Shown in pieces: positions 16,607-49,690 of a DNA stretch of 64,000 nt. The notes under the pieces were generated by a model, which searched no databases, was not told the DNA's origin, and worked only from the letters and a program-made list of their open reading frames with translations. How positions within the stretch are numbered: the stretch's first letter is position 1; each line of letters starts with the position of its first letter. The DNA comes from an uncultured Acidobacteriota bacterium (lineage in GTDB: Bacteria > Acidobacteriota > JAQAZP01): contig CAWIIB010000009.1 in assembly GCA_963836075.1 (NCBI GenBank), positions 1,280,001 to 1,344,000 on the forward strand. The letters are read 5' to 3'. The position numbers and the translations under genes are program-made.

Positions 16607-17164
16607 ATGAGCACCATGAACAAGGAACTGCTGGAACTGTGGCCCGAAATAGAGTGGATCGAGGATAGTGAACTGCGGGAGAAAACCGCCCGCACCTGGG
16701 AACTGGCCCTGGAGCGCAGCGCGCTCACCGGCGAGGACCTGAAAGAGATCCCCTTCACCCTGCTGGTGAAGGAATGCCCGGCTTCCTTTATGGACCACAA
16801 GCGCTGCGTGGTCCACATCTCCCGCGACTCGGCGAAAGCGATGCAGGCCTTCTTCGGCGACAACCTGCCGATCCACATGGACACCGTGATCGCCGGGGCG
16901 ATCCTGGCCGATGTGGGCAAACTGCTGGAGTACGAGCTCAAGGATGGCAAGTCGGTGGTGGGGATGACCGGCAAGTATCTGCGCCACCCCTTCACCGGTG
17001 TGGCCCTGGCCATGGAGTGCGGGGTTCCCGAGGCGGTCTGCCACATCATCGCCGCCCATGCCGGCGAGGGGGACAAGGTGGTGCGCACCACCGAGGCCTA
17101 CATCGTCCACCACGCCGACTTCATGAGCTACGAGCCGTTCCGCACGGCTGACAAGTGGAAGTAG
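16607..17164 (+). CDS. HD-domain-like (HDIG) phosphohydrolase
   Basis: DHKR, ILADVGKLLEY (HD reads AD), LRHPF, HIIAAH, VHHADF. Confidence 0.75.
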   Translation: MSTMNKELLELWPEIEWIEDSELREKTARTWELALERSALTGEDLKEIPFTLLVKECPASFMDHKRCVVHISRDSAKAMQAFFGDNLPIHMDTVIAGAILADVGKLLEYELKDGKSVVGMTGKYLRHPFTGVALAMECGVPEAVCHIIAAHAGEGDKVVRTTEAYIVHHADFMSYEPFRTADKWK

Positions 17165-17254
17165 GCGGCAGTTCCTGTCATTGCGAGCCGCCGACCCGCT
17201 GGGGCAGCGGGAGATATGTAAAAGAAACAGTTCCTTGTACAGTTAGGCTTTCAC

Positions 17255-17430
17255 GGTCCTGGCAGCAATGACCGGCGGCACATTGGAGCACTGTTGCCCG
17301 CTTGCGAGCCTGGTTCCGGGGTAGGAGAAGGTCTGATTGGTGAAGCTCCGATTCTGGTTAGGCGCCCGAACGAAGCTATCCCGTTTAAGAGATTACTCGA
17401 CGATCTCCTCCGGGCCAGGGCCAGAAGTTA
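17255..17430 (+). ncRNA. Putative IS110 bridge RNA
   Basis: The non-coding left end has a 5' stem-loop (GGCAGCAATG...CATTG...TGTTGCC), TTGCGAG (17302-08, left target + core), GCTCC (17345-49, reverse complement of the right target) and TTAAGAG (17385-91, left donor + core). Boundaries approximate. Confidence 0.6.
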
Positions 17431-17453
17431 ACCACCACACAAGGAACTGTCAG

Positions 17454-18842
17454 ATGAAGGATAGCAAGAAGAAGCGAGAGAAGTCACGGTCAAAGATGAA
17501 GAAGCTGGACGAGACGATGGAGCAGGTCAACCCTTCGGCGGCTGGTATCGACGTGGGATCCCGCAAGCATCTGGTGGCGGTATCACCGGAGCGGGATGAG
17601 CAGCCGGTTCGTTCGTTTGACTGCAAGACACCTGACCTGCATGAGATGGGCCGTTGGCTGACCAGTTGCGGCGTCACGACAGTAGCGATGGAGAGTACCG
17701 GGGTCTACTGGGTCCCGGTGGCCAATGTGCTGGAGCAGCATGGGCTGGAGGTGGTACTGGTGGATGCCCGCCAGTCCAGGAACGTGCCGGGGCGGAAGAA
17801 GACGGACGTGCTTGACTGCCAGTGGATCCGGAAGCTCCATGCCTACGGTCTTCTCCAAGGCGCCTTCAGGCCCGAACGTCAGATCCAGACGTTGCGGGGA
17901 TACTGGCGTCATAGAGCAGGTCTGGTGGAATCGCGTTCCACGCAGATCCAACTGATGCAGAAAGCACTGGAGCAGATGAACCTGCAACTGCATAAAGTAC
18001 TCAGCGACATTGCCGGCGTCACTGGCATGAAGATCCTCAGGGCCATCATCGACGGTGAGCATGATCCACAGGTGCTGGCCAAGATGAGGCACAAGCAAGT
18101 GAAGAGCAGCGAGGATGAGATCGTCAAGTCGCTGACCGGCGACTACCACGAAGAACAGTTGTTCATCCTCCAGCAGGCCGTGGAGCTCTACGATCATTAT
18201 ATGGAGAAGATCGCGGCCTGTGATGCCGAGCTCGAACGCTACCTGTCAACATTGGAGAGCAAGGGTGATCTGGCCGCCTATGACGGTAAAGCCCAGACCA
18301 GCCGTCGAAAGAACCAGCCCTGCTTCGACCTCAGGCAAGAGCTCTATCGCATCAGTGGTGTTGACCTGACCCGGATCGACGGCATCGATGCACTGACTGC
18401 CCAGACAGTGATCAGCGAATGCGGTATCAACATGAACCCGTTCCCCACGGTTAAGAACTTCTGTTCGTGGCTCGGCCTGAGCCCGAACAACAGGATAACC
18501 GGAGGGAAGATCAAGCGACGTGGGACACGCAAGGTGGTTAACCGGGCATCCACCGCGCTACGACTGGCGGCCCAAAGCCTCCACCGCAGTAACTCATACC
18601 TCGGTGCTTACCTGAGGCGGATGAAGGCCCGCATCGGGCCTCAAAAGGCGACAACTGCAACCGCTCACAAGCTGGCCCAGTTGATCTACCGGATGCTCAA
18701 ACATGGAATGACGTTCGTGGACCAGGGACAAGAGCTGTTCGAAAAGCAACATCAGGAACGATACCTGAAAGCTGTGAAAAAACGTTTGAAAGCAATCGGA
18801 TACGACCTCGTAGCGACAGACACCGGGGTTGTTGTTTCTTAA
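17454..18842 (+). CDS. IS110 family transposase (DEDD recombinase)
   Basis: GIDVGSRKH, AMESTGVYW, KKTDVLDCQW, IDGID, WLGLSP.NRITGGK, ATAHKLAQLIY. Confidence 0.95.
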   Translation: MKDSKKKREKSRSKMKKLDETMEQVNPSAAGIDVGSRKHLVAVSPERDEQPVRSFDCKTPDLHEMGRWLTSCGVTTVAMESTGVYWVPVANVLEQHGLEVVLVDARQSRNVPGRKKTDVLDCQWIRKLHAYGLLQGAFRPERQIQTLRGYWRHRAGLVESRSTQIQLMQKALEQMNLQLHKVLSDIAGVTGMKILRAIIDGEHDPQVLAKMRHKQVKSSEDEIVKSLTGDYHEEQLFILQQAVELYDHYMEKIAACDAELERYLSTLESKGDLAAYDGKAQTSRRKNQPCFDLRQELYRISGVDLTRIDGIDALTAQTVISECGINMNPFPTVKNFCSWLGLSPNNRITGGKIKRRGTRKVVNRASTALRLAAQSLHRSNSYLGAYLRRMKARIGPQKATTATAHKLAQLIYRMLKHGMTFVDQGQELFEKQHQERYLKAVKKRLKAIGYDLVATDTGVVVS

Positions 18843-18942
18843 GAGGAGCCCGCAGGGCGACGAAGCAATCTCTCTTCAGGCATTCAAGTGCCGGGGAGAT
18901 CGCCACGTCGCCCTGCGGGCTCTTCGCGATAACAGAGAGGGA

Positions 18943-19953
18943 TCAGCGGCAGAAGGTGCCGGAGCGGCCGTTGGCGGCGAGGGAGCGCACTTCATCTTCA
19001 CCGAGGCCGAAGGACTCGATGGCCAGAAGATACTCTTTGGCAATGTTGGTGCCCGACACGGTGGTGTTGTCGGTGCAGAGGGTGCAGGGAACCCCGTATT
19101 CGAGGAAGCGGGGCAGGGGGTGGTCCTTGATGTCGGTTATCGCCCCGGTCTGCAGGTTCGAGGTGAGGCAGCACTCCACCATGATGCCGTCGTCGGCCAG
19201 CCGGCGCAGCAGGGCCTCGTCCCTGCCGGCGCTGGTGCCGTGGCCGATGCGGTCCGGGGCCAGCAGTTCCACCGCCTGCCAGATCTTGTCCGGCCCGTCA
19301 GCCTCGCCCACGTGTACCGTGCGGTGGAGGCCCATTTTTTTCGCCAGGGCGTAGGCATCGGTGAAGAGGATCGGGGGGAAGGGCCGTTCAGGCCCGGCGA
19401 TGTCGAACCCCACCACCCCGGGGCCGCTGTGATACTGCTCCATCTCGCCGGCGATCTCCCGCAGCAGGATCTTGGCCATGTTGCCGCCATGGTTGCGCAT
19501 GGCGATGATCACCAGGCCCAGGGTCATCTCCGGTTGCTGCTCGCCGAACTCCTTGAGGCCGGCCAGGGTGGCGTTGATCACCTGGCGGGTGGTCAGGCCG
19601 GCCCGGCGGTGGATCAGCGGGTTGACCCGCAGCTCCAGCAGCCGCACACCTTCGTGCCAGGCATCCTCGGCGATCTCGTAGGAGATGGTGCGGATGTTGC
19701 CGTAAAACTGGGTGTACTGCAGCGGCACGTGGAACTTGTCCAGGTAGTCCATCAGCGTGCTGTCTTTCTTCGGGTCGTAGCGCAGCATCCGCTGGAAGCC
19801 GTGGAAATCCATGCCCGGGATGGCTTCGTAGTAGCGCTCGGAGAGGTCCCAGAGGGTGGAGGGCCGTATCGAACCGTCCATGTGCCGGTGCAGGTCGCCC
19901 AGGCCCAGGGTGCCGAGAAACTCCAGCCAGCGCGTCCTCTCCTTGTCGGTCAT
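18943..19953 (-). CDS. Adenosine deaminase family protein
   Basis: DLHRHMDGS, GFDIAGPE, TVHVGE, RIGHG, ECCLTSN, CTDN. Start at ATG 19953 overlaps the upstream stop. Confidence 0.88.
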   Translation of the reverse strand: MTDKERTRWLEFLGTLGLGDLHRHMDGSIRPSTLWDLSERYYEAIPGMDFHGFQRMLRYDPKKDSTLMDYLDKFHVPLQYTQFYGNIRTISYEIAEDAWHEGVRLLELRVNPLIHRRAGLTTRQVINATLAGLKEFGEQQPEMTLGLVIIAMRNHGGNMAKILLREIAGEMEQYHSGPGVVGFDIAGPERPFPPILFTDAYALAKKMGLHRTVHVGEADGPDKIWQAVELLAPDRIGHGTSAGRDEALLRRLADDGIMVECCLTSNLQTGAITDIKDHPLPRFLEYGVPCTLCTDNTTVSGTNIAKEYLLAIESFGLGEDEVRSLAANGRSGTFCR

Positions 19954-49592: not shown

Positions 49593-49690
49593 CCTGGCAT
49601 TGCGAGGAGCCGTCGAAGACGGCGACGAAGCAATCTCCCGGCAATAGTGATGCATCTTTTGGATTGCTTCGCTACGCTCGCAATTACAGG
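49593..49690. repeat. Uninterrupted palindromic repeat (CATTGCGAGGAGC...GAAGCAATC/GATTGCTTC...CTCGCAAT)
   Basis: Self-complementary ends, and the same family as the element split by IS110. Confidence 0.8.

Follow-up and report, generated by a model that had tools for sequence, protein, structure and literature searches.

The 64,000-nucleotide stretch of DNA analysed here, called the window below (positions 1,280,001 to 1,344,000 of contig CAWIIB010000009.1, assembly GCA_963836075.1, from an uncultured Acidobacteriota bacterium), carries an insertion sequence (IS) of the IS110 family at 17188-18845, 1,658 bp long with the right-hand copy of its AG core included. We hold, at a probability of roughly 0.88, that this element is intact and uses a bridge RNA, encoded in a non-coding left end of 266 bases (17188-17453; folding z-score -2.45) that lies directly upstream of the gene for a 462-amino-acid recombinase (17454-18842). 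All features are on the + strand unless stated otherwise. The element interrupts one arm of an inverted pair of repeats that are REP-like (REP standing for repetitive extragenic palindromic). An initial annotation, made from the letters of the window alone, had proposed an IS110 element inserted in a palindromic repeat and bearing readable bridge-RNA guides; it is right in that main claim and wrong in the core and in the right target guide. What results is a settled annotation for this part of the window: a 1.66-kb mobile element with a guide RNA, exact ends, a target repeat and a spare target site.

Guides, core and fold of the left-end RNA

Evidence for the guides comes from their covariation with the DNA around each element. 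The homologue set consists of the best 80 loci of at least 564 relatives, with 45-63% protein identity, and in 76 of the 80 an nhmmer model of the left end detected homologous sequence upstream of the gene for the transposase. For every locus, the 7-mer at the alignment column of a guide was sought in that locus's own DNA, with the 7-mers of the other loci as control. The donor guide of the window, TTAAGAG (17385-17391), is identical to the last seven bases of the element (18839-18845), and the corresponding 7-mer recurs in its own right end (from -20 to +70 of the stop of the open reading frame, or ORF) in 60 of 67 loci, vs. 46 of 4,000 foreign pairings. The target guide, TTGCGAG (17302-17308), runs in the sense of the left flank plus core and would pair with the bottom strand of that flank; here 50 of 65 loci have the 7-mer in their own flank, 100-140 bases upstream of the guide, as against 49 of 3,964 foreign pairings (50 rather than the raw 52, since at L056 and L090, both short loci, the guide is matching itself). 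In those 50 loci the distance from the guide to the flank copy upstream is 108-132 bases; in the window it is 114. By simple arithmetic, a given 7-mer would be expected about 0.016 times by chance in a left end of 266 bases. Over the 76 loci the target guide takes the form of 42 distinct 7-mers and the donor guide of 16, carried on one conserved scaffold and spread over many phyla; the set is a natural reprogramming series, the kind of evidence that defined bridge RNAs in 2024. Both of the window's 7-mers had been picked out in the initial annotation, as left target guide and left donor guide, in the order TTGCGAG, GCTCC (17345-17349), TTAAGAG, which is indeed their order in the left end. Covariation between left ends and targets in homologues had been suggested there as a check, and 7-mers that lie in paired stems and fail to covary as grounds for giving up the idea. 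As it turns out, both of them covary, and both lie outside the conserved helices.

AG is present at both junctions in the window and in all 40 homologues for which both ends have been located. Among the relatives, left flanks ending in TAAG, TTAG or ATAG are joined to right ends in GGAG, AGAG or GTAG (for example, a flank ...GTAAG with an end ...AGGAG), and only AG is common to the two; since this holds in many loci, the core is AG and not the GAG originally read from the window. As is characteristic of the IS110 family, the element lacks terminal inverted repeats and has, in place of a target duplication, a short core common to target and donor, its 7-base inverted repeat being subterminal. 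The longer core belongs to a reading in which RNA specifies both halves of the repeat, as in the E. coli element IS621, with GCTCC as the right target guide. That reading does account for the GAG common to both window junctions, and GCTCC is antisense to the last core base and the first four bases of the right flank, but we consider it decidedly unlikely. Apart from the AG of the homologues, GCTCC is part of a stem, namely the 5' strand of the hairpin at the apex of the donor module (P2, 17338-17383); antisense 5-mers of the GCTCC type match their own flank in 11 of 40 loci, no better than the 327 of 1,546 (21%) seen with foreign pairings, and do so at scattered positions; a match to the full AG core plus four bases occurs in 0 of 40 loci; and near-identical elements (L028-L031; L023-L026) adjoin, and evidently tolerate, different right flanks.

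Directly after the target guide comes CC (17309-17310), the dinucleotide with which the element itself begins (17188-17189). The same correspondence is seen in 32 of 40 loci vs. 68 of 1,258 foreign pairings, and agreement with the right flank of the same locus in only 2 of 40; by analogy with IS621, these two bases look like a handshake guide. The left subterminal repeat, AAGAAAC (17222-17228), is the reverse complement of 18834-18840 near the right end, and it too follows its partner from locus to locus: when left-end positions 16-85 were searched for the complement of the 6-mer at the right end of the same locus, it turned up in 32 of 40 loci, vs. 6 of 964 foreign pairings, and the complement is present in 13 of the 16 loci that have a non-consensus right end.

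The fold was derived from an alignment of 35 distinct left-end sequences, in which RNAalifold predicts three helices; the 15 consensus pairs are paired in 99.0% of cells, six of them having changed on both sides, a result reached by none of 500 shuffles, and slid controls go no higher than 48.6%. A hairpin of seven pairs (17195-17211) lies just inside the left end, which in a circle junction would put it on the right-donor side; across the family, folding of the left end's first 34 bases is better than that of shuffles, with a mean z of -1.28 and 12 of 35 sequences below -1.5. Further in, an outer helix, H2 (17258-17263 with 17414-17419), encloses both guide modules. The target module (17270-17315) is made up of the stem H0 (17270-17274 with 17311-17315), a 5' loop strand (17275-17283) and the hairpin P1 (17284-17300), and the donor module (17316-17413) includes the stem H1 (17316-17328 with 17404-17413) and the hairpin P2 mentioned above. 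Common to both modules are a stem, an internal loop and a hairpin of the conserved form UGGUG...CCCG, and both guides begin two bases 3' of the conserved hairpin, in the 3' strand of the internal loop. H1 and H2 are poorly aligned and were therefore tested by duplex energy, own against foreign partners: the own partner falls within the top 10% of the foreign ones for H2 in 33 of 35 loci (control, 6 of 35) and for H1 in 28 of 35 (control, 5 of 35), and H2 is also present in 28 of 35 single-sequence folds. Near-invariant G-U pairs (in 34, 35 and 34 of the 35 sequences) would be non-pairs on the other strand, and the RNA is therefore assigned to the + strand. A long non-coding end encoding a structured RNA that has two internal loops is what is expected of the IS110 family.

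In the single-sequence fold only, a 12-pair long-range helix (17227-17238 with its 3' arm at 17439-17450) closes the whole left-end RNA and covers AAGGA, a ribosome-binding-like motif eight bases before the start codon; in this model, the helix may couple folding of the RNA to translation of the recombinase. The same helix would suit a quite different interpretation, in which the left end acts as a set of protein-binding sites in the DNA or as an mRNA leader and the 7-mers are copies produced in the course of past recombination; the failure to find a promoter on the + strand of the linear left end (see below) would suit it as well. However, compensatory changes and strand-specific G-U pairs point to a folded + strand RNA, the 7-mers track 42 different targets across phyla, for which history alone is no explanation, and the protein belongs to a family with members shown to be RNA-guided. 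An interpretation without a guide RNA is, in our estimation, very improbable.

Ends of the element and its copies

The right end, GTTTCTTAAGAG (18834-18845), packs together the subterminal repeat GTTTCTT (18834-18840), the left donor plus core, TTAAGAG (18839-18845), and the AG itself (18844-18845). The stop codon of the recombinase, TAA, is at 18840-18842 and the element ends three bases past it, much as had been said when the right end was described as essentially the stop codon. A pattern for the 11-12-base right-end motif matches in 29 of the 80 homologue loci, two of the matches (L033 and L071) lying away from the end of the ORF. The 40 homologues with both ends located are 1,604-1,713 bp long, a range that takes in the element of the window. 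Four identical copies in one metagenome-assembled genome (MAG) of the Latescibacterota have in common the left flank TTAGGAG, the element and its end ...CAGGAG, and nothing beyond. Metagenome contigs from three DNA runs, which belong to different studies, begin to match the window at 17175-17185 and stop or diverge at 18845-18849, as seen in the longest pieces listed; the listed pieces differ from the window by 0 or 1 letter, and their flanks differ.

The source genome itself has one full copy and one truncated 5' fragment of 685 bases (G000:C9:621401-622085), near-identical to 17176-17860 of the window and with an unrelated upstream flank. This fragment (minus strand, 1501-2185 of locus L002) consists of the left end and the first 140 codons or so, with a frameshift; it is inserted in the same repeat head, and its broken end joins the body of another repeat unit. 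The boundaries are placed at 17188 and 18845 since the truncated copy with its other flank, the metagenome contigs, the four-copy MAG and the length range of the 40 homologues all agree on them.

The true left end would lie further to the right if 17188 to about 17240 were a host repeat ('type A'), and there is some reason to ask: the first 45-55 bases are 81-97% like about 16 short transposase-free repeats in the same genome, and such repeats are also present in two genomes of the same genus in which the transposase of the window was not found. Yet homologues in many phyla have left ends that begin in the same way, with a hairpin and then AAGAAAC, the distance from the target guide to its flank copy stays within the same narrow range in the 50 loci as in the window, and AAGAAAC, which lies inside the disputed stretch, covaries with the right end. 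The truncated copy, moreover, departs from the window at a single one of these bases, the element's third, as against the 10-20% by which type A units differ. Because the relatives have the same start, AAGAAAC covaries and the two copies differ by one base, we count the first 45-55 bases as part of the element, and a host-repeat origin for them is extremely improbable.

The recombinase and its known relatives

The assignment to the IS110 family in the initial annotation is borne out by all three protein models, each above its cut-off: PF01548 (E 8.6e-22, 78 bits, cut-off 29), PF02371 (E 3.6e-11, 43.7 bits, cut-off 21.3) and NCBIfam NF033542, 'IS110 family RNA-guided transposase' (259.5 bits vs. 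a cut-off of 140). The DEDD RuvC-like N-terminal domain and the Tnp C-terminal domain of the family are both present, and in the alignment to IS621 the acidic residues of that protein fall on D33, E80, D118 and D121. Relatives of solved structure are distant, with only ISCro4 (E 4.3e-5) and IS621 (E 9.4e-5) matching in phmmer. Thr349 aligns with the catalytic Ser241 of IS621 (its direct partner is Ser243 of the chain in 8wt6, equated with native S241 through the D13/D11 offset). Threonine, like serine, bears a hydroxyl group. Among the 81 proteins of the clade, the residue at this position is S in 39 and T in 36, with 6 unscored. The threonine, along with a genome that holds one full copy and one truncated, frameshifted fragment, could be taken to mean that the copy is a fossil and no longer moves. 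This is unlikely: threonine is found in 36 of the 75 scored homologues, including the four identical copies in one genome, the ORF of the window is open, and near-identical copies (0-1 letter different per listed piece) occur with different flanks in runs of different studies.

Still, the threonine stands where the IS110 family has its catalytic serine, and it is one of a number of observations that weigh against an intact element using a bridge RNA. Another is the presence of a single full copy in the source genome. The public runs are all represented by contigs, and among the joints listed for these there is neither a circle junction nor an empty-site joint. No orthologous empty site was found in the nearest genomes, G001 and G002. 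In G001, of the same genus, eight bases separate the matches to the flanking genes (G001:C279:56979-56988) and the repeat pair is absent; with only eight bases there, the window's repeat pair is itself an insertion relative to G001. At the matching place G002 has 2,148 bases of other genes, and a second locus in the source genome (G000:C9:508801), checked for an empty site, gave no clean boundary. One contig of an RNA-seq library spans 17176-17409 only, with a different upstream flank; it hints faintly at transcription of the left end, though it could represent carried-over DNA and extends in from the flank. A scan of 17000-19000 for promoters and terminators, made on the linear element only, came up empty for the + strand of the left end, where in particular no sigma-70-like promoter was found; in the IS110 family the RNA is expected to be driven by a promoter at the junction of the circular intermediate. 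Sequences folded singly leave the guides only about half unpaired, at mean probabilities of 0.46 (target guide) and 0.50 (donor guide). An Rfam scan of 16900-19200 with E values up to 10 gave no matching family, its sole hits being microRNA models on the repeat hairpin, far under their gathering scores.

To the same side belongs the outcome of the searches for right target and right donor guides, neither of which was found, though IS621 needs both. In column covariation between 318 model columns and 12 positions per flank, the best z for the right flank is 3.5, and nothing rises above about z 6 besides the handshake pair and the guide columns, the latter being circular in this test, with boundaries that had been set by the guides. 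Anchored antisense k-mers for the right guides show no enrichment over foreign pairings, in a search that could miss discontinuous pairing of the IS621 kind; the initial annotation had likewise been unable to place a right donor guide. The 5' loop strand of the target module, considered as a guide, gave no k-mer enrichment, and no match was seen at the homologous place in the loci compared by eye; in the window, 17275-17283 is antisense to the last core base and the first six bases of the element, which we treat as chance. A hairpin in the right flank, considered as a general structural gate, was also set aside, the clade mean z being -0.13 with 3 of 38 below -1.5. In both target and donor, the left half-site alone appears to be read by the RNA.

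IS621, from E. coli, is the archetypal bridge-RNA recombinase of the IS110 group (Durrant et al. 2024, PMC11208160; Hiraizumi et al. 2024, PMC11208158), and the comparison made here draws on parts of these two accounts. In the layout given there, the left guide lies 5' of the inner stem-loop, which is followed by a 2-base linker, the right guide and two handshake bases (PMC11208158). The window element resembles IS621, as far as those parts describe it, in having a DEDD plus Tnp recombinase and an RNA in the left end, upstream of the gene and on the gene's strand; in the two modules of stem, internal loop and stem-loop; in guides that include the 2-base core; in a 2-base handshake guide directly 3' of a guide; and in a REP target. 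The differences are also considerable. The proteins are barely alignable (462 amino acids vs. the 328-residue chain of IS621), the core reads AG on the gene strand rather than CT, and the flank-sense guides of the window lie 3' of the inner hairpin, in the right-guide slot of IS621, and not 5' of it; in addition, no guide for the other half-site has been found, the nucleophile position is occupied by Thr, and the window element has a 7-base subterminal inverted repeat. By analogy with the published layout, the 2-base linker, 7-base guide and two handshake-like bases of the window would fill the right-guide slot of IS621, and on the opposite strand the core would read CT and the repeat head would become a 'right target'.

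On the IS621 model of transposition, the element would leave as a circle in which right end, AG and left end are joined. The RNA would then hold the circle junction by way of the donor guide and a chromosomal TTGCG-AG site by way of the target guide, and the recombinase would exchange strands at AG, after which the CC that follows the target guide would pair, handshake-like, with the incoming left end.

Two elements of Pseudomonas come closer in some respects. According to parts of the published description of ISPpu9 of Pseudomonas putida (NAR 2025, PMC12288879), it has AG at both termini in gene orientation, targets REP sequences and bacterial interspersed mosaic elements (BIMEs), and is accompanied by a MITE (a miniature transposable element with inverted repeats), MITEPpu9, with look-alike ends; similar palindromes are present inside its left end and in the downstream repeat fragment. 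ISPpu10, in what we draw from a preprint (bioRxiv 10.64898/2026.03.19.712850), has one strict and one permissive guide, and a stem-loop in the target raises efficiency. Compared by description only, the window element is like these two in its AG termini, its REP-like target and its hairpins at 17195-17211 and inside 18846-18872, and differs in host phylum and repeat family; in its clade, unlike these two as described, a target-side hairpin is not general. In the IS1111 group the guide RNA, the seekRNA of Siddiquee et al. (2024), reportedly lies downstream of the gene. With that group the window element would have in common the subterminal inverted repeats and targeting guided by RNA, but the RNA of the window is upstream and the right end is three bases past the stop codon, so that the downstream RNA of the IS1111 group has no counterpart here.

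Target repeat, stubs and derivatives

The left target is the REP-like repeat head at 17175-17187, whose last seven bases are TTGCGAG (17181-17187), with the core AG at 17186-17187; the right target is the body of the interrupted unit (18846-18872), which contains a GC-rich hairpin. Excision with one copy of the core restores the arm: a script that joined 17175-17187 to the sequence from 18846 on, and set the product against the reverse complement of 18896-18935 (the intact inverted partner, on the minus strand), found 34 of 40 positions matching, which reproduces the 40-bp pairing with six mismatches reported in the initial annotation. About 80 repeat units with the same head are present in the source genome by a loose pattern, and the placing of the element in a palindromic repeat family was well founded. 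Another unit with the same joint of head and body, at 49594-49636, is unoccupied and a potential target, its inverted partner lying some 25 bases further on; it is the empty site formerly put at about 49598. The target shares with REP sequences and BIMEs its shortness, its GC-rich palindromic make-up and its frequent occurrence in intergenic inverted pairs; the difference is that these repeats serve as the landing site and not as the element.

The target guide specifies five bases plus AG. TTGCGAG occurs 226 times in the source genome, only 45 of these in repeat heads, and yet a longer repeat head is common to both insertions in that genome and to the longest left-end contigs of three of the four public runs. 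The proposal that the element is aimed at this repeat family agrees with where the insertions lie, and goes beyond what the seven bases specify; either something besides them directs insertion or insertions at other sites are lost. The left flank of two relatives with the target guide TTTTAAG (L057 and L063) resembles, by eye, the 3' part of a tRNA gene in reverse.

The short transposase-free repeats of the source genome, about 16 in number, each consist of a repeat head, AG and a 50-55-base copy of the start of the left end (81-91% identity), with the hairpin followed by AAGGAAC. Examples are at G000:C9:60328-60392, 508806-508870 and 787164-787227; within the window, the only such sequence is the element's own left end (17175-17240). 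Most of them have another repeat head within 10-17 bases, and the sequence after AAGGAAC varies among the copies. A query made of such a stub gave 14 and 13 matches in the two same-genus genomes, where the window transposase was not found in G002 and G001 has only a 32%-identical C-terminal match. These repeats look like left-junction stubs or decayed MITEs. At G000:C9:60517-60562, the only other place in the genome with the 10-base right-end motif, the last 14 bases of the element (ending in AG) are followed directly by a left-end-like hairpin, without the element; this reads as the predicted circle junction or as the joint of tandem copies.

A genome of the same phylum, G016, has 14 full-length copies of a 43%-identical relative (e.g. 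L138 and L122-L133). The terminal 15-mer of its right end was counted 216 times, allowing at most one mismatch, vs. 0 for a control pattern; in several listed cases these 15-mers are about 347 bases apart, and between the one pair inspected lies a MITE-like unit, with a left-end-like hairpin at its start. For 12 copies the left junction was displayed; in these the full element stands directly after right-end-like sequence, and the target and donor guides differ by one base.

A more far-reaching proposal, which we put forward tentatively and regard as doubtful on balance, is that the clade represents a mirror-image variant of the bridge-RNA systems, in which one half-site is read, about half of the members use a Thr nucleophile, and stubs or MITE-like derivatives are shed. 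Its 7-base guides would occupy the right-guide slot together with a handshake dinucleotide, the strand at 17275-17283 having lost a guide role or never having had one. With one half-site being enough, elements would shed left-end stubs and land beside them, the evidence for this being the stubs of the source genome, the sequence at G000:C9:60517-60562 and the 216 right-end copies of G016. If this were true, stub repeats would persist in lineages after the element itself had been lost. Features of the homologue set that would be of interest for engineering, should they hold up, are specificity from one half-site plus handshake, the placement of guides in the loop strand opposite to that of IS621, and the alternation of Ser and Thr at the catalytic position. 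The novelty of such features would be limited by ISPpu9 and ISPpu10, which, in the accounts drawn on above, already have AG termini, REP targets, unequal guides and a MITE.

At L082, on a contig of a JAVTVH-type MAG, two copies of a homologue lie head to tail, and the right flank of the first copy is the start of an element; read from the sequence, this joint is a natural junction of right end, AG and left end.

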